Source: Candidatus Hodarchaeota archaeon (GTDB lineage Archaea; Asgardarchaeota; Heimdallarchaeia; Hodarchaeales; Hodarchaeaceae). Taken from it: a DNA stretch of 55,361 nt. A program made the translations under genes and the position numbers. Below are positions 24,906-38,460 of this stretch, one piece after another. Location: NCBI GenBank assembly GCA_016839815.1, contig JAEOTM010000079.1, positions 1 to 55,361 of the forward strand, given 5' to 3'. The notes beneath the pieces are model-generated. The model was not told the origin of the DNA. It did not search any database and saw nothing but the letters and a program-made list of their open reading frames with translations. How positions within the stretch are numbered: the first letter of the stretch is position 1; each line of letters opens with the position of its first letter.

Positions 24906-27900
24906 TTAAATACGTCGTTTACGTACATAAGTACTAATTCCTGCTCCAGTCACAAATGCAAATATAATTAACGAGATTATGGGAATAAATGGAATGAAGA
25001 TTGTACTAAGTTCAAGCATATGAATACTATCACTCGTTACAAAAACATTACCAGCATAATCCATAATTTCAACATAGACTTGAGCATTCCCTGCAGCTAA
25101 TCCTCGTCCTTTGGCAACCCATTGGGTACCTTCAGCATAACAATCAAATGAAAACCATGAGGATTGTTTAATGTAGACTTTTACAGAGGCAACACCCCAA
25201 TTATCGGTCGCAACAACTTCTATGTTCAAGTAGGGTGAATCTACATCTTGAATTTCTGATAATTTGAGACGGTTTAACGTGGGATAAATCAAATCCTTGA
25301 CAATTTCACCTGTCTGTGGATCAATTGGAATACGTGCTTCTCCTAGGATAGCAGGTGCACTTCTAACAATCCAGTCATCGTACATACTTGATAATTTCGC
25401 AGGTACAACTAAAGATTGACGTATATTCGATGCAATCAACCCATACTTAACCTTAGTTTCTCCTGCGGGTAATTGAGCAAAGAAAAAGGTTATTCTCGTG
25501 CTTGAAATGCTGTACATTTCTTGACTGTGTTGAACAGTGCTTGGATCAACCGTGAATCCTGACGGGATTGATTCCTCCAACATGAGGAAATTCATTGTCT
25601 CATTCTCATTGTTCACCTTAAGAGTTACCTGAATTAAGTCTCCGGGTTGAATATATTTCTCCTGTGAAAATTCTCGATCTAATGACAATCCTACTACTCT
25701 AGATTTCGATTGAAGACTCATTTGAACTTCAGATTTAGGATTATTTGGGTCAGAAATCGGTGTTGACACAGTAAGGATACCTTCAACGGAATTACTTACT
25801 ACAAGTGTTATTGGACCATATTGCCGACTTATGATTCCAGGAGAGAATGATGACTGATCACTATTTGCTAGAAGATAGAAAATTTCAAATCCAGGAATCG
25901 TATACGTTCCAGGAACAGAGGGAGCTTCATACCTGAAGGTTAATGTAGTCTCATGAGTTAATAATTGAATGGTTTGGGGGAGATTAATAATAGGAAGAAT
26001 CTCTCCTTGTACTGGACTGATTGTGACATTCGCTGCAAACACCTCGGCTGATTGAGGACTTAGCTGGATTGGAATATTGACTTCTTGCGTTGGAGCAACA
26101 GTTATCTCTGAAGGAAGGAGAATTTCAGGTAAAGCACGTAGAGTTTGATGGCTATAGAAGTAATAACTGACGTTCCCCGTTCCAGATTTGCTAAAAGTGA
26201 AATTATTTTCTCCAGATTGGATAAGAGATTTGAGATTTAGGTATATGACAGGTTCTCCATTTACTGAAAGATCGTAATTACCGATTTCTTCCTCATTTAG
26301 ATATACTTTCACATTAGTATCCTCATCAGAGCTGAATCCTTCTTTACTAATTGTGATTAGACTAGAAATTGCTGCAGAAGTATCTGCGGTATTTCCCCAT
26401 CCATATCGTGATTGTCTTCCTAACAACCATTGAATTGCACCACGTATGATCGGCATGTGGGAAGTGGGATCTTTCTTAACTAGTGCTTTCAATGCCAAAC
26501 CAGTAATCTCTACTTGACCACCCAAAGCTCTCCAATAATATCCAGGAGTGGAGGAATATTTCCAAAAGTTTCCATCTCCAGATAACTGAACTTCACTCAC
26601 AAGATAGGAGAGGAGATTTGATTCGAATGTAGGAGAACCAAATGATGAATCCACGACCGCATCAAGATATAGAGCAGCCAAATAGGATGATTGCTTAGTA
26701 GAATCACTCCACGCACTGGACACGTAACTGATTGCATCATTAATTGGATCTATATCTGTAAGTTCAGCAGACCAGTAGATAAGTGATCGTAGAGCAAATG
26801 CTGTAAATGAAACCTCGTCAATATTTCGCCATGAATCAGGAGTCCAGCTTCCATCATAATTTTGTTTGGTTAATATCGAGTTAAGAGCTGCCTTTACTAC
26901 AAGTGGATCAACATAAATCCCAACATCTCGTACTGCACTCAATCCATAAAGGACGAGAGCCGTCATATAAACTCGAGATGAATCACTAGACCACCAACCC
27001 CAACCTCCATCAGGGTGCTGTTGACTATATAACCGAGATAATCCTGTGACAAGCATATCTGTTAATAAATCAGCAGTTTCATTGGTTAATTGACCTGTTT
27101 CATTCAAATAGTTCAATATCAGTGCATCAGGCACGATTCGTGATATTGTTTGTTCTGTGCATCCGTATGGATAACCCACTAACCGCTCCCATGAACTTAT
27201 CGCGGTTGAACCTAAACCTAATGATAATTCTAAGAATTCTATCTGTTTTACAGCGTCAGAGTATCGTAAATACTCGAAGTGTGGTTTCTGGTATACAAAT
27301 CCGCTTTCTTTAAATTCCGTTTCAACTCCATTAGGAATAATATCCACTGCTTTTCTGATTGCGTCAGAATACCGAGAGCCATTATTTAGTTCAGTAGTTG
27401 CATAAATTGTAACATTGACAAAATCAGCATCTTCTGCTAAACAGGCCCAGGATATCGATCCTAAAAAGTCTCCAGGTAGTCGAATTCTTTGCGAAGCATC
27501 TCCTAAAACCGTTATTCCATTCGCTGGGTCTATAGATACATCTATTTCAGCTAATTCCCCTAAATAGTTGTAAACTACACCTTTGATAATAAAAATATCA
27601 TCTTGCAATACAAATGGATCTTTAACAATCTCCACAAAGAACGGTATGAACGTTTTGAATGTATATTTTGTTAAGGTACCTATACCAGAAGTAGGTGAGG
27701 TTGCAACAACTCGAACTGTCCATTCACCAATAGTATCGGGAAGAGTAATAGTGATTGAGATTAATCCATCCTCTTCAATTGCAAATGGTGTCCAAAACGC
27801 ATTCTCTGGTAGGTTATCTCTGATTTTTTGCCCTACATCGGCATCAGGAGGACTTTCCTCTGTATTTTTGAATCCTTGTTCATTTGTAGGCGCACCATAG

Positions 27901-30776
27901 TCAATCATGACATCTCCTTCATAATAACCTCCTCTCCAATAAGATGGGTATCCAAATCCGTAGAAATCATCGCACCACCAGAACCACCAATCGAGTTGGC
28001 GACTTTTCCATGAAGATACCGTCCAAACTGAAGGCCAAAACTGTTGATCCTTAAAATGTTCAAGTTCCGATTCAGGATCTGGTTCGACTCCAAAGACCGA
28101 GCTATCAATGAATGAAATCGCCAGAACAGTTGAAATAGGGTTATTTTTGGCATCGAATACCTGAATATCTATTTTAGCTTCTTCACCCGGTGTGTAAACA
28201 TCTTTATCAGATTTAATCTCCACAATAAGGGATGAGTCAATTTCCACATATAAACGTACTTCTTGAATAACCCCAGTGGACAAGATTGCAAATCCATAAA
28301 TCCAAACTTTTGGTGCAAGGGTGGAAATATCACTAAGTGTCAAACTAAATGAGCTTGCTGTACTAGATGGAATATATTGAGTTGTGAGTATTCCTTTCTT
28401 CACAAATTGGACCATGACAGGAGCGTTTGTTTCCCCTTCTACCTCTCCTGAAATTGTCATACTGTCACTTAGAGTGTAGCTAGCTTTATCCAAAGTCATT
28501 GAGAACTCTTGAGAGGGGCCTACTGTGAAAAAAGCTGTTGTATCATATTTATAATAATTATATGATCCCCATTCGTATGTAAAAGTTTTCCTTACATAGA
28601 TATGCACAAAATACTTTCCATTTGGTGCATAGGAGGAAAGTTGGAATGAAAAAGTCTCTCCAGATGTAGGTACAAAACTCCTTTTTTCACCGATTAACTC
28701 GTAATCTGTATCAAAGATACGTACACGGACATTTCCAGATAGTTGACTAAAAGTTAAAAGACTATGAAGATTTACGTTAATATTCACTGTTTCACCAGGC
28801 AAATAGGATTCTGAATCAAGAGATACATCGGCTCTTAACAGATCTACAGAGAAGTAAAATGATGACATGCCATTCCGACCATCCCCTGAATTTAATTCAA
28901 CTACTCCATAAAATCTGGTAGTAAGAATTAAGATTTCTTGCGGGATAGCAAATTCGTAACGACCATATCCATTTTCGTCTGTTTGTGATTCAAAAGTGGC
29001 TACATAGATTGTAGTATCTTGAGATAACATTCCATAAAGCTTAATGGTTACTTCAGCTTCAGGAAGGGGTTGAAAGCTTCTCCAGTAATAATATCCAGCA
29101 GAATATTGATAAGCACCAAAATAAAGGGTAACATTTTCATCTGCTTTTGGGAACCATGGATTTACCCACGCCCAAACGTAAACATTTTCTGTGATTTGAA
29201 CAGAGGTAGAGAAACTAACCTCTCGATCTACAGTGTCAGTTACTGTTGCATTTAATGATATACCATATAATCCACTATCTTTCAATGAGGAAGGTAATCT
29301 ATAGGAAAATTTCCATAATCCATTTTCATCAGTTTCTCCAGATAATGTTGTAAGATCTCCAATCAGAAGTTCTACCTGTCCTTGAATCACAGGTTTTCCA
29401 AAATAGTAGATAGCACTTAATGTTCCAGACACTCTTTGACCAGGAGCAACATACTCTTTATCCAACTCGATCTCAACCCTGTATGCGGGTTTTTCATATT
29501 TATCGACTCGAATATCAGTTGTGGTAATTACCTCATCCTTCTGGGTGACAATACTATATGCTCCCAGTTCACTTTCTGAATCAAGCACGAAGGAATATTC
29601 GGAAACACCATATGAATTTGATTTTAGAGATTTTTGGAATAAAGTATGATGAGAGGGAGATAGTAATTTCAAAGTAAATGATGTGGAAATAGGTTGCTTT
29701 GTCGCTTTCAGGTAATCATTTTGCCATAATAGAATTCGGGCTTGAACGGTCTCTCCTGGATTATAGATTGGCTTATCGGTTGTCACAATGAACTCGTAAG
29801 GACTAAATTCCTGATATCCATCAGAGGTCCAGTAATATCCTCCGCGGTAAATGTCCCGTAAAACGTACGTAGTTTCCCCATTATACGTAACAGAGAGATT
29901 GGCCATAAAATGATAATTTTCACTAAAATTAGATGGAGGAATAAACGTGATTTCAGTAACTCCCTGTACATCTGAGATTCCACCGAACAGTTCTTCAGAG
30001 TAGATGGAATAATTTCCAGATTGATAATCATAAGTAAATAACTCTCCCGTGAGCGTTACCGCCGCTCCTGTAATAGGCGAAAAGTCAGTAGTATTTAGTA
30101 CATATGCTACTGAATAATGCGGTTGCCCTTTGACAAATTCACGTGAGACTCTCCAAAAAATACCAATATCTGCGATATTGAATGATCGAGATTTATAGTA
30201 ATAAGCATCATATTCATCACGTATAATTATTGAATATCGCCCTTGAACAGAAGTTTGAAATATTCCCTCATACTGGCCATCTGAATTTGTAGTGACGATT
30301 TTTCTTTCAATGATTCGATCTTCATAATTCACAATATCATAATAATAATAATGATACCATCCCCAGTACTCACCTTTAATAATCTCAATAGTGATTCTTT
30401 CACCTGGTACTGGATTCAAGCCTCTTGAAGCTTGGATGACATATCGTAGAGGTTGCCCAGGTTGAGTAATTTCCTTTTCCAGATCAATTTGGATTACTAG
30501 TCGCTCATCATCACCTTGACCAATCTTAGACGTGACTTCTGGAGTCATATTATTAAAATTCAGGGGACTAGGATCAAATGATTCGTACGAGGCTGTTTCA
30601 GGTTGTTCAATTGCCTGAATTTCTGGTTCAAGCTCAGGTGCTTGATAATTTTGATTATTCAAAACATCTATTGCTGTAGAATCATGTTCTACCATTAAGT
30701 CAGCTGATGTGACCTGTACTATTCCAAATAATAAGACTAATAATAGTGTTAAGCTAATTACTCTGTTTTTGATCAT
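24906..30776 (-). CDS. Alpha-2-macroglobulin / thioester-containing protein, secreted and C-terminally membrane-anchored
   Basis: TDKPIYNPGE (MG2), YEKP, YYFGKPV, IRDNLPE, LPDTIGEW, thioester YPYGCTEQT, QHPDGGWGWW TED; signal peptide and C-terminal TM+RKRR; start set at ATG 30776. Confidence 0.93.
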   Translation of the reverse strand: MIKNRVISLTLLLVLLFGIVQVTSADLMVEHDSTAIDVLNNQNYQAPELEPEIQAIEQPETASYESFDPSPLNFNNMTPEVTSKIGQGDDERLVIQIDLEKEITQPGQPLRYVIQASRGLNPVPGERITIEIIKGEYWGWYHYYYYDIVNYEDRIIERKIVTTNSDGQYEGIFQTSVQGRYSIIIRDEYDAYYYKSRSFNIADIGIFWRVSREFVKGQPHYSVAYVLNTTDFSPITGAAVTLTGELFTYDYQSGNYSIYSEELFGGISDVQGVTEITFIPPSNFSENYHFMANLSVTYNGETTYVLRDIYRGGYYWTSDGYQEFSPYEFIVTTDKPIYNPGETVQARILLWQNDYLKATKQPISTSFTLKLLSPSHHTLFQKSLKSNSYGVSEYSFVLDSESELGAYSIVTQKDEVITTTDIRVDKYEKPAYRVEIELDKEYVAPGQRVSGTLSAIYYFGKPVIQGQVELLIGDLTTLSGETDENGLWKFSYRLPSSLKDSGLYGISLNATVTDTVDREVSFSTSVQITENVYVWAWVNPWFPKADENVTLYFGAYQYSAGYYYWRSFQPLPEAEVTIKLYGMLSQDTTIYVATFESQTDENGYGRYEFAIPQEILILTTRFYGVVELNSGDGRNGMSSFYFSVDLLRADVSLDSESYLPGETVNINVNLHSLLTFSQLSGNVRVRIFDTDYELIGEKRSFVPTSGETFSFQLSSYAPNGKYFVHIYVRKTFTYEWGSYNYYKYDTTAFFTVGPSQEFSMTLDKASYTLSDSMTISGEVEGETNAPVMVQFVKKGILTTQYIPSSTASSFSLTLSDISTLAPKVWIYGFAILSTGVIQEVRLYVEIDSSLIVEIKSDKDVYTPGEEAKIDIQVFDAKNNPISTVLAISFIDSSVFGVEPDPESELEHFKDQQFWPSVWTVSSWKSRQLDWWFWWCDDFYGFGYPSYWRGGYYEGDVMIDYGAPTNEQGFKNTEESPPDADVGQKIRDNLPENAFWTPFAIEEDGLISITITLPDTIGEWTVRVVATSPTSGIGTLTKYTFKTFIPFFVEIVKDPFVLQDDIFIIKGVVYNYLGELAEIDVSIDPANGITVLGDASQRIRLPGDFLGSISWACLAEDADFVNVTIYATTELNNGSRYSDAIRKAVDIIPNGVETEFKESGFVYQKPHFEYLRYSDAVKQIEFLELSLGLGSTAISSWERLVGYPYGCTEQTISRIVPDALILNYLNETGQLTNETADLLTDMLVTGLSRLYSQQHPDGGWGWWSSDSSRVYMTALVLYGLSAVRDVGIYVDPLVVKAALNSILTKQNYDGSWTPDSWRNIDEVSFTAFALRSLIYWSAELTDIDPINDAISYVSSAWSDSTKQSSYLAALYLDAVVDSSFGSPTFESNLLSYLVSEVQLSGDGNFWKYSSTPGYYWRALGGQVEITGLALKALVKKDPTSHMPIIRGAIQWLLGRQSRYGWGNTADTSAAISSLITISKEGFSSDEDTNVKVYLNEEEIGNYDLSVNGEPVIYLNLKSLIQSGENNFTFSKSGTGNVSYYFYSHQTLRALPEILLPSEITVAPTQEVNIPIQLSPQSAEVFAANVTISPVQGEILPIINLPQTIQLLTHETTLTFRYEAPSVPGTYTIPGFEIFYLLANSDQSSFSPGIISRQYGPITLVVSNSVEGILTVSTPISDPNNPKSEVQMSLQSKSRVVGLSLDREFSQEKYIQPGDLIQVTLKVNNENETMNFLMLEESIPSGFTVDPSTVQHSQEMYSISSTRITFFFAQLPAGETKVKYGLIASNIRQSLVVPAKLSSMYDDWIVRSAPAILGEARIPIDPQTGEIVKDLIYPTLNRLKLSEIQDVDSPYLNIEVVATDNWGVASVKVYIKQSSWFSFDCYAEGTQWVAKGRGLAAGNAQVYVEIMDYAGNVFVTSDSIHMLELSTIFIPFIPIISLIIFAFVTGAGISTYVRKRRI

Positions 30777-30852
30777 TTTTATCACATTTGGGGAAAAATT
30801 GAGATTCTCTTTTCTAATTCGAATACTCACTCCCGTCATATTAGATACCAAG

Positions 30853-35384: not shown

Positions 35385-35944
35385 GTAATTGTTAAGAAAA
35401 TGAAGAAGCTTTCTTTCTTCCTCAGAATTTAGTAGATAATCATAAACATCCCAAAGGATTTTTTATACTTTTTTAAATTGAAGAGAGAACGGAAAGCTCG
35501 AACGTTTTTGATGAGTTCCTAGAGATAGAAAATATATAGCTCCAATTACTGTTTCAAAAAACTTTGGGCTAGAGAACGGACTAAATCTGCATATGTCTGA
35601 TCTACTAAGGAAAAATCATTTAAAACTGCCTTCAACTGATAAAAATTCTTTTAAAAGTGAATTAAAGTGAATCTACAACATCATACACTGTTTTGAGCCG
35701 TTTTTACCTGAGAATCCTAATTATACGCCGCAACTTGTTCTCATTTTCTATTTAAATCGCAATTTCGATTAAGCGGATAATTTCACTAGAGAATCTTATC
35801 GTGAGCCAAAATTGGCTGATTCTTCATCTTTTTTGAAAACGACGTGACAAAAATCCAGTACTCAACTAACCAGCATTTTTTGTGTGATAAAGTGAGAACC
35901 AACCCCTAAAATTGACACAAAACTTGTTTAAAGATCTTCATCTA

Positions 35945-35968
35945 GCGAAAGGGAACCTTTATAATAAA
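35945..35968 (+). promoter_or_regulatory. Candidate BRE/TATA promoter for actin
   Basis: GCGAAAGGGAACC followed by TTTATAAT (35958-35965), about 180 bp upstream of the actin ATG. Confidence 0.45.
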
Positions 35969-35994
35969 ACAAGAACACCCATGACTTGCATTAA

Positions 35995-36111
35995 GCCAAT
36001 CGAACCCGCAGAAACAGTTTCACTTACTCGAGTGAAACGATATCTGTTCGAGTATATAAAAGGAAAACCACGAAATCGAAAATAAGAGTGGTTGGCAATA
36101 CTTTGGTTCGA
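35995..36111 (+). promoter_or_regulatory. Structured actin leader or operator array
   Basis: GTTTCACT/AGTGAAAC, CAGA/TCTG, TCGAAC(C) with two alternative partners, AACCAC/GTGGTT, GCCAAT/GTTGGC. Confidence 0.45.
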
Positions 36112-36145
36112 GAAGCAGAAAAACAACAACTAAAAAGTGATTAAA

Positions 36146-37288
36146 ATGTCCCTAGCAGAAGGAATTACAGGTAAACCCCTCGTTATTGATAATGGTACTG
36201 GTTTATCAAAAAATGGTTATGCTGGTGAGGATCAACCTCGTTCAGTTTTTCCAACATTAATAGGATATCCCAAATACCAATCCATTATGTCTGACGTCGA
36301 CCACTATGTTCGTGAATATTACGTAGGTGAAGAAGCTATGAACCTACGGGGTGTATTGAAACTTATTTACCCTATCGTGCACGGAGTAGTTACAGACTGG
36401 GACGCGATGGAAAAGATTTGGCATTATACGTTCCACAATGACTTACGAGTCAATCCAAGTGAACATCCAGTTCTCTTGACAGAAGCTCCTCTTAATCCAG
36501 GAAAGAACCGAGAGAAGATGGCAGAAATTCTCTTTGAAACATTCAATGTTCCAGCGATGTATGTGTCCATGCAAGCTGTCTTATCTTTGTATGCTTCCGG
36601 AAGAACCACTGGTCTAGTTATAGATGCAGGAGATGGAGTAATACACATTGTACCTATTTATGAAGGCTTCGCAATCGCTCATGCAATTAGTCGTATTGAC
36701 ATTGCCGGTCGTGATATCACTGAATATCTACGACGATTATTACGAACCCGTGGACGTGCTTTAACCTCTTCCGCCGAACGAGAAATTGTACGAGATATCA
36801 AAGAACGACTATGCTATGTTGCTCTTGATCCTGAGAAGGAGCTCAAGTTAGCAGAGAAAGTCTCTGGTATGGAAAAGCAATATACTCTCCCTGATGGTGA
36901 AACTTTGACCATTGGTCCTGAACGATTCTTAGCTCCTGAAGCTTTCTTCAACCCCTCAGCTATTGGAAAAGAAGAAACTCCTTTGGATGAAGCTATTTAT
37001 GCCTCTGTTCAACTTTGTGATATTGACCTTCGAAAAGAACTTTACCAAAACATTGTCCTATCTGGTGGATCAACCATGTTCCCTGGATTAAAAGAACGTC
37101 TTCACAAAGAACTCACTGAGCTCGTACCTGACAATGTCGAGATCCGAATTGTTGCCCCTCCCGAACGTCGTTACTCTGTTTGGATTGGCGGTTCTATTCT
37201 CTCCTCTCTAAAAACCTTCCAACGCCTCTGGGTTGCTCGTAAAGAATATCAAGAGCAAGGTCCAGGCGTTATCAAACGAGCTATCTAA
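36146..37288 (+). CDS. Actin (Asgard eukaryote-like actin, Lokiactin-type)
   Basis: [101 protein letters not shown]. Confidence 0.98.
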
Positions 37289-37377: not shown

Positions 37378-38460
37378 TTACTTACTAAAAGTATGGTACA
37401 TGAGTGTGATGAAATCCTCTAGCACCTGATAGCACCAGAGATTCTCATTCAGAAATTGCTCAAATTTCTTTTTACCCTCTTCATCCGTAGAAAACTTATT
37501 TAGTTCTGGTAGAAGCTCTGTACTTATACCAGTCTTTATCCGAGTAAAAATGCGCTTTTGATTCGTATACTTTGAAAAACTATAGTCTGCCATATCAATA
37601 AGAGGAGAATAATACTTTTTTCGATCTTTGGGCTTCTTAACTAATTTGACAGTTTTAAGTTGAGTAAATAGGGAAAGCGTTTCAGAAATTGCAGTACGAC
37701 TTGCTCCAGTCAACTCTTTGAGTTGATCTTGAGTTACGGGTTCTCGTTCCAAGTATAGTCCAAAATAGACAGCTATTAAGTCTCGCTGCTTACCCGAAGG
37801 TGGTAGATTATCTAAGAGATATGTAATAAAATCTCTCTTTATTTGTGTCAAATCATCTGATTTTGGTACTTCAATTTCAGAAGTAGGGGATGATAAGGTT
37901 ACTTTCTCTTGAGATTTTACTATATAGGGATTGATATCGGGGAACTTCCCTGTTTCTAAGATCAAATCCAATTGATCTTCAACATAGGATATTAATGCTT
38001 GTACACTTGAGTAAGTAGATTTAAGAAATATAAATAAGTCAAATACATGCTTTACATCTGGGGTTTGAGGGGTTAATGCTTCTAAACGCGGGAAAAGTTT
38101 ATCAATAAAATCATAACTTGTTTCAGAAGATTCTAAGTTCGTTTTTGCTAGGATCTTTGTGTATTGTAGAAATGAAAGGGGACAGCTATAGTATTTTCTC
38201 TTCTCACCTGGTTTGCGAATTTCTCTTACAGAATACCGACTTGAAAAATCTGTAAGTTCTGATAATGTTTCTGATACCATCGAGCGACTATAACCTGTTA
38301 ACTCCATAATCTGTTCTTGAGATAATGACTCCCCTTCTAGCATCAAGGTAAATAATACTCCCTTTAAATAAGGATTATAACCTAAACTTTTGTTTGCTTG
38401 AGCTATAAAGTTTAAATAATCCTTCTTCAGCTCTAATAACTGATCTTCTATATTGGACAT
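37378..38460 (-). CDS. Transcriptional regulator with two tandem GbsR/MarR-type wHTH domains
   Basis: LSQEQIMELTGYSRSMVSETL..KPGEKRKYY and VTQDQLKELTGASRTAISETL..KPKDRKKYY. Confidence 0.82.
   Translation of the reverse strand: MSNIEDQLLELKKDYLNFIAQANKSLGYNPYLKGVLFTLMLEGESLSQEQIMELTGYSRSMVSETLSELTDFSSRYSVREIRKPGEKRKYYSCPLSFLQYTKILAKTNLESSETSYDFIDKLFPRLEALTPQTPDVKHVFDLFIFLKSTYSSVQALISYVEDQLDLILETGKFPDINPYIVKSQEKVTLSSPTSEIEVPKSDDLTQIKRDFITYLLDNLPPSGKQRDLIAVYFGLYLEREPVTQDQLKELTGASRTAISETLSLFTQLKTVKLVKKPKDRKKYYSPLIDMADYSFSKYTNQKRIFTRIKTGISTELLPELNKFSTDEEGKKKFEQFLNENLWCYQVLEDFITLMYHTFSK

Follow-up and report, generated by a model that had tools for sequence, protein, structure and literature searches.

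A conserved 19-bp box in the folded leader of a Hodarchaeales actin gene, a candidate operator

The actin locus and its upstream promoter

The window, that is, the whole stretch of 55,361 nucleotides that we analyzed, is contig C20 of a 4.24-Mb genome with a completeness of 89.5%. It carries a lokiactin-type actin gene encoding 380 amino acids (PF00022, E 1.4e-132), and members of the 90% cluster of this actin, which numbers 93, are annotated as Candidatus Hodarchaeales. A gap of 760 bp lies 5' of actin, followed by a divergent membrane-protein gene, and a convergent MarR-like gene adjoins actin on the 3' side. Neither neighbor is constant across the genus, where the MarR-like gene is without synteny, and the sequence box described below stays with actin despite the changing upstream neighbors. 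Actin loci were drawn from 40 related genomes, metagenomes, and exact-protein look-ups, giving 35 distinct leaders of the same cluster. The features of the locus are as follows.

35948-35957, forward strand: purine-rich BRE-like element of promoter P1, purine-rich in all leaders compared
35958-35965, forward strand: TATA box of promoter P1, kept as TTTWWAAW in same-genus leaders
35981-36085, forward strand: 34-codon ORF, judged not functional, its ATG 7 nt 5' of the predicted start
35984-35991, forward strand: Inr-like motif with the predicted start G35988 (TATA+30), placed by promoter geometry
35995-36006, forward strand: 5' arm of outer helix P1, paired with 36105-36116
36009-36027, reverse strand: inverted, weaker copy of the box (PWM 15.0, second-best in the locus), which is the 5' arm of a hairpin described in an earlier note
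36028-36046, forward strand: 19-bp asymmetric actin box, consensus YYRASYGAAACGRTNNCTG, the best PWM site in the genome (30.8 bits)
36053-36060, forward strand: second TATA-like octamer, TATA2, of a possible promoter P2, recognized by its spacing to the box core
36066-36093, forward strand: lineage-variable inner helix AACCAC/GTGGTT (p 0.95-0.99 in this strain)
36105-36116, forward strand: 3' arm of outer helix P1, paired with 35995-36006
36135-36140, forward strand: Shine-Dalgarno-like AAGTGA at the end of an A-rich tail, kept before the ATG across the genus
36146-37288, forward strand: actin

Several other features were seen in the window and the genome. On the reverse strand at 37378-38460, convergent on actin and divergent from an ABC transporter, lies the gene of a 360-aa protein with two MarR/GbsR-like wHTH domains, which is in two pieces in L154. 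A 1981-aa ORF at 24906-30851, also on the reverse strand, resembles the alpha-2-macroglobulin family and has a thioester-type GCTEQ motif, read by eye. Two tandem actin paralogues (G000:C66:89309-91881) are 34-39% identical to the main actin and have no upstream box, and the same tRNA-like sequence with apparent inserts stands at two contig ends (G000:C41 near 7047 and G000:C65 near 23419).

The first TATA-like octamer TTTATAAT at 35958, the second, TATATAAA, at 36053, and the actin ATG at 36146 are located where the earlier note had read them. The A three bases 5' of the first TATA forms an invariant column in the alignment of 17 loci; the BRE column in the 35-leader scoring was fixed by the search pattern, and the BRE is supported by the 17-locus alignment and the comparison of purine-richness. 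Boxes similar to the promoter P1 TATA are present in two genomes of other families. A pyrimidine-purine step, which has a background of ~0.22 per position and usually sits within ACTTGCA, occurs exactly at TATA+30 in 34 of the 35 distinct leaders as scored, these being related and not independent sequences. Calibration of TATA across the whole genome yielded no positional signal that could be used. The archaeal promoter geometry thus predicts a start at G35988 and a leader of 158 nt, and the predicted leaders of relatives measure 113-170 nt. The Shine-Dalgarno-like AAGTGA lies outside outer helix P1 in the fold of this strain.

The 19-bp actin box and its copies

The core of the box was found in all 22 loci that have an actin at least 92% identical and at least 100 nt of upstream DNA, and the box is present in the 35 distinct same-cluster leaders, with the last G of the core variable in a few strains. 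In G022, which belongs to another family and whose actin is 78% identical, the box scores 23.6 bits at the same distance from the ATG; this match is out of sample, as the PWM was trained solely on the 22 loci. Searches 5' of actin did not detect the box in G023 of the same order or in some 75 more distant Asgard actin loci, except for a weak 10.6-bit match in L106. Within this genome the next-best PWM site (23.4 bits) is inside an ORF, no other intergenic site exceeds 17.1 bits, and none stands at the two actin paralogues on C66. BLAST and a covariance model detected no further copies of the region in this genome. Away from actin, the occurrences of the box pattern in sets of 22 and 83 genomes are mostly inside ORFs and their counts are near those of reversed-pattern controls. 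Because of these control-like counts and the lack of a strong second intergenic site, the box is, by sequence comparison, specific to actin and without a detectable regulon; it is restricted to the order Hodarchaeales, in which it spans two families.

Some partial matches were recorded elsewhere. The first 14 bases of the box occur at L211:222 (G048) and L214:1500 (G064), intergenic, just 3' of a TATA-like word, and in both cases 5' of one and the same 93-aa gene; the two genomes belong to another family, and the occurrences may be chance matches or a related operator. At L226:1500 (G009:C1:307005), a 14-base box core lies between two divergent TATA-like words, and the flanking genes, judged by eye from their translations, have an Lrp/AsnC-like start and an HTH-like start, respectively. 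In L019 (G023), a TATA2-like octamer forms the center of a 20-bp palindrome ~75-95 nt 5' of the actin start, and the leader is long, without the box and without a folding signal (z -1.1).

The earlier note described a hairpin upstream of actin, whose stem strings GTTTCACT (36017-24) and AGTGAAAC (36031-38) we recovered exactly, and overlooked that the two arms of this hairpin are copies of a single 19-bp sequence motif. The two inverted boxes abut (36009-36046, +22 to +59) in a 38-bp imperfect palindrome, and it is because they abut as inverted copies that the strand folds into the hairpin. Seven positions (GAAA, T, and TG) are invariant in both the sense and the inverted copy, and the degenerate positions of the inverted copy vary largely independently of the sense partner, often breaking pairs. 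In L162, the inverted copy is a perfect consensus box, yet it mismatches its sense partner. Overall the hairpin is 83% paired, with two-sided changes at 3 of its 17 pairs, and A-C mismatches number 34 versus 21 G-U wobbles.

The arrangement of the copies differs among lineages. The inverted copy is downstream of the box in G001 and G016; in L045, two direct copies lie 39 nt from each other and flank a partial inverted copy; the short-leader group and G022 have a single full copy, and in some lineages an extra copy has decayed. All lineages have their strongest copy on the sense strand. At the place expected for TATA2, L016 (G001:C1:457471-457514) and G016:C2:125-168 each have two full boxes facing one another 6 nt apart within a ~45-nt inverted duplication, and the whole leader there is one long stem with a z of -6 to -7.

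TATA2 is located 18-19 nt 3' of the GAAACG core in 33 of 35 leaders and is missing in four lineages (L016, L186, L045, and L028). The box lies 31-68 nt from the start site and 80-121 nt from the ATG, and both distances vary among leaders. There is no genome-wide enrichment of GAAACG at 18-19 nt from TATA-like words, and no fixed start-site signal is present at +30 of TATA2; promoter P2 is a candidate. The geometry of the copies, their independent variation, and the fixed spacing to TATA2 favor recognition by a protein that would read duplex DNA; the inverted copy keeps the box consensus rather than its pairing. The box sequence is kept across lineages while the fold differs.

Folding of the leader and alternative readings

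Folded from the predicted start at 35988, the leader reaches -35.4 kcal/mol with a z of -3.3 to -3.4. Values of that order occur in 2.7-3.8% of 956 upstream regions of this genome (26/956 at z <= -3.4), a rough comparison that used 15 shuffles per region. The longer interval 35940-36145 also folds better than its shuffles (-38.8 kcal/mol, z -2.36, 4 of 200 shuffles as good), and so do all 19 representative leaders (z -1.6 to -6.3). The mean z is -3.4 for the sense strand, -2.6 for the antisense strand, and -1.5 with the box region removed, and the sense strand folds better than the antisense strand in only 12 of the 19 leaders; we count both results in favor of a DNA operator. A box that travels with actin and a leader that folds better than chance support the proposal of a cis-element in the earlier note, and this element is conserved. 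Its pairing strings TCGAACC (36000-06) and GGTTCGA (36105-11), as well as AACCAC (36066-71) and GTGGTT (36088-93), are present as described. Its closure of a 52-nt hairpin by TCGAA/TTCGA has a probability of 0.01 in the full leader, compared with 0.97-0.99 for TCGAACC/GGTTCGA, and is not the predicted one.

The main alternative is that the box acts in RNA, as the site of an RNA-binding protein or a small RNA within a structured 5' UTR where the complementary arm masks it, with an effect on the stability or translation of actin mRNA. We regard such a site as rather unlikely, although it has several observations in its favor: the strongest copy is always in the sense orientation, every representative leader beats its shuffles, and outer helix P1 is paired in 87% of the cells in 18 sequences (18-34% in slid controls), with three columns changed on both sides and some compensatory and G-U changes. 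In addition, the leaders of the short-leader group form a closing stem of their own as well as a second hairpin, and the partner arm of G022 pairs with the sequence flanking the box but does not retain the GAAA core of the box. However, the invariant core of the box lies in at least three different predicted structural contexts, the consensus folding energy is only -6.4 kcal/mol against -31 to -44 kcal/mol for the individual folds, and the A-C mismatches in the hairpin outnumber the G-U wobbles. The covariance model of the long type does not match the short-type, G001, or G022 leaders, and other lineages (the L007 group and G022) enclose the box in non-homologous helices. An alignment of relatives, which the earlier note had proposed together with a covariation analysis, confirmed the conservation of the box sequence; the covariation of outer helix P1 was matched by 24-79 of 500 shuffles, came mostly from one lineage, and was not clearly above the shuffles.

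The modeled helices around the box in leaders without a full inverted copy, together with the ~35-bp stem of L016 (z -6 to -7), suggest selection on RNA. This selection is probably a loose one for a folded and stabilizing 5' end, not for one conserved RNA architecture. The ompA-type structured 5' UTRs have a stabilizing 5'-proximal stem, and the actin leader resembles them in being long, in folding above chance with a helix near the 5' end, and in belonging to the gene of an abundant protein. The actin leaders differ from the ompA type in that their pairing partners are not homologous from one lineage to the next and in that they contain an invariant sequence box.

It is very unlikely that promoter P1 yields a separate small RNA of ~130 nt while actin is transcribed from TATA2 only. 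Outer helix P1 does close a compact domain from +8 to +129, and the retention of TATA2 in nearly all leaders would suit this arrangement, but in this group the domain is followed by an A-rich tail and no terminator, and the 3' arm of outer helix P1 is downstream of the would-be start of promoter P2. Lineages without TATA2 would then have no actin promoter, and no second copy of such an RNA was found in the genome.

A riboswitch or attenuator, which the earlier note had placed first and which would use alternative pairings and the 34-codon ORF as a leader peptide, is less credible still. This strain does have the alternative 5-bp closure, which could form for a short time while the RNA is being transcribed, and some short-type leaders carry U-runs after a hairpin, but this strain has no U-tract 3' of the hairpin. 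The competing pairings have probabilities of at most 0.01, are 5-6 kcal/mol worse, and are disrupted in the majority of 18 close relatives. One of them, GCCAAT/GTTGGC, is indeed present in the sequence, with five Watson-Crick pairs and one U-G rather than six perfect pairs, and its probability is 0.00. The register of AACCAC/GTGGTT, well formed in this strain, is likewise broken in most of the 18 close relatives. The inverted arm is complementary to the Shine-Dalgarno sequence, but the two are not brought together when the box is blocked, and the probability of the Shine-Dalgarno helix then stays at 0.00-0.03 in 18 of 20 leaders. The ORF proved to be peculiar to this strain in its ATG: in the 34 other leaders its place is taken by TTG or by a codon that is not a start, and the frame spans 2-55 codons in relatives, those with an identical actin protein having TTG and a 55-codon frame and others having no start and 2-30 codons. 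An Rfam 15 search, also suggested in the earlier note, returned nothing for the leader even at E <= 10 save a 12.5-bit chance match, and none of four relatives' leaders had a match at the gathering score.

That the boxes are Orc1/Cdc6 origin recognition boxes, marking a replication origin or a site of Orc1 as a regulator, is just as hard to credit: the genome has four Cdc6_C genes, and an asymmetric box ending in GAAAC in inverted pairs resembles mini-ORBs, but the spacing differs from the ORB consensus, the G-string is absent, the four cdc6 genes lie on four other contigs with none on this one, and the box keeps its place at the actin promoter even where the neighboring genes differ between genomes.

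Some RNA motifs were considered in addition. No bulge-helix-bulge site is present in this strain, and some relatives have scattered G-U-rich matches; this candidate was rejected. K-turn/C-D box, hammerhead, GNRA, and T-loop motifs were rejected by inspection, as the closing pairs or GA steps that such motifs need are variable in relatives.

A candidate operator and its relation to known systems

We lean towards the box being the operator of a dedicated actin regulator, within a 158-nt leader whose outer helix is probably a real RNA structure. A DNA operator upstream of the second TATA, a secondary idea in the earlier note, has thereby become our leading explanation. In the proposed mechanism, promoter P1 with its BRE and TATA, starting at the predicted position 35988, would produce an actin mRNA with the 158-nt leader, and a dedicated sequence-specific protein would recognize the 19-bp asymmetric DNA box inside that leader. 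By analogy with known archaeal regulators, the factor bound just 5' of TATA2 may recruit TFB/TBP to promoter P2, which has a weak BRE, and/or may block the polymerase arriving from promoter P1; four TFB paralogues were counted in this genome. The choice of promoter would set both the actin level and the length of the leader (158 versus about 60 nt), and outer helix P1 would probably protect the 5' end of an abundant mRNA without switching. The conservation of the box, its uniqueness, the geometry of its copies, their spacing to TATA2, and folding above shuffles are what the comparisons show, whereas the start site, the binding of a protein, the recognition of DNA over RNA, the activity of promoter P2, and the sign of regulation are what we infer. 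The points that we count against an operator are the bias of the box towards the sense strand, the lineages lacking TATA2, the alternative helices enclosing the box, and the two-sided changes in the hairpin. A further point against it is that E2F/DP, KilA-N, and SRF-type domains were not found in this 89.5% complete genome with the queries used, two of which had silent controls.

MDR1 of Archaeoglobus is a repressor that binds downstream of the promoter. Archaeal activators with sites at a conserved distance 5' of a weak BRE have been described, as have archaeal repressors that act downstream of the promoter (PMC5937170, PMC10665913), and a fixed spacing to the BRE/TATA has been described as the signature of TFB-RF1 and EarA sites (PMC5937170; PMC10665913). 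The TFB-RF1 motif of Thermococcales is similar to the actin box in its conservation, in its conserved distance upstream of a weak BRE/TATA, and in its very small regulon (PMC5937170). That motif, TRBM, is a 13-nt palindrome beside the regulator's own operon (PMC5937170), whereas the actin box is a 19-bp asymmetric sequence of variable orientation that is present one to three times within the leader belonging to an upstream promoter and shares no sequence with TRBM. In the case of the archaellin genes, the EarA sites, like the actin box, consist of one to three copies of an asymmetric motif at a fixed distance from the BRE and lie 5' of the gene of an abundant structural filament protein (PMC10665913). 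The EarA motif, however, has 6-8 nt and forms direct repeats upstream of the only promoter described (PMC10665913), while the actin box has 19 bp, is often inverted, and is located downstream of the main TATA. The actin box copies resemble the sites of archaeal repressors that bind downstream of promoters (PMC5937170) in being situated in the initially transcribed region, at +22 to +59. Unlike those repressors, no syntenic regulator gene is found at actin, and repression is a proposal made here. Operators within folded leaders are a familiar kind of element, and the actin box is most likely one of them and not a riboswitch or attenuator. In the literature searched, which covered few subscription papers, we found no description of a cis-regulatory element of an Asgard actin gene.

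The lineage of the Hodarchaeales has been proposed as the closest to eukaryotes. Cultured Hodarchaeales show actin-containing protrusions only when they are not dividing (10.1101/2025.02.26.640444), and because these protrusions form only in non-dividing cells, the supply of actin is probably regulated. The precise, actin-specific box of 19 bp, which spans two families, provides a ready bait for pulling down the regulator. A more far-reaching version of the operator, which we regard as improbable, is that a dedicated and possibly G-actin-sensing regulator toggles the two promoters and thereby produces two 5' UTR isoforms, one long and structured and the other short. If true, such a toggle would be a prokaryotic functional analogue of the feedback that SRF/MRTF exerts on actin genes, and it might be linked to the transition between cells that divide and cells that form protrusions.
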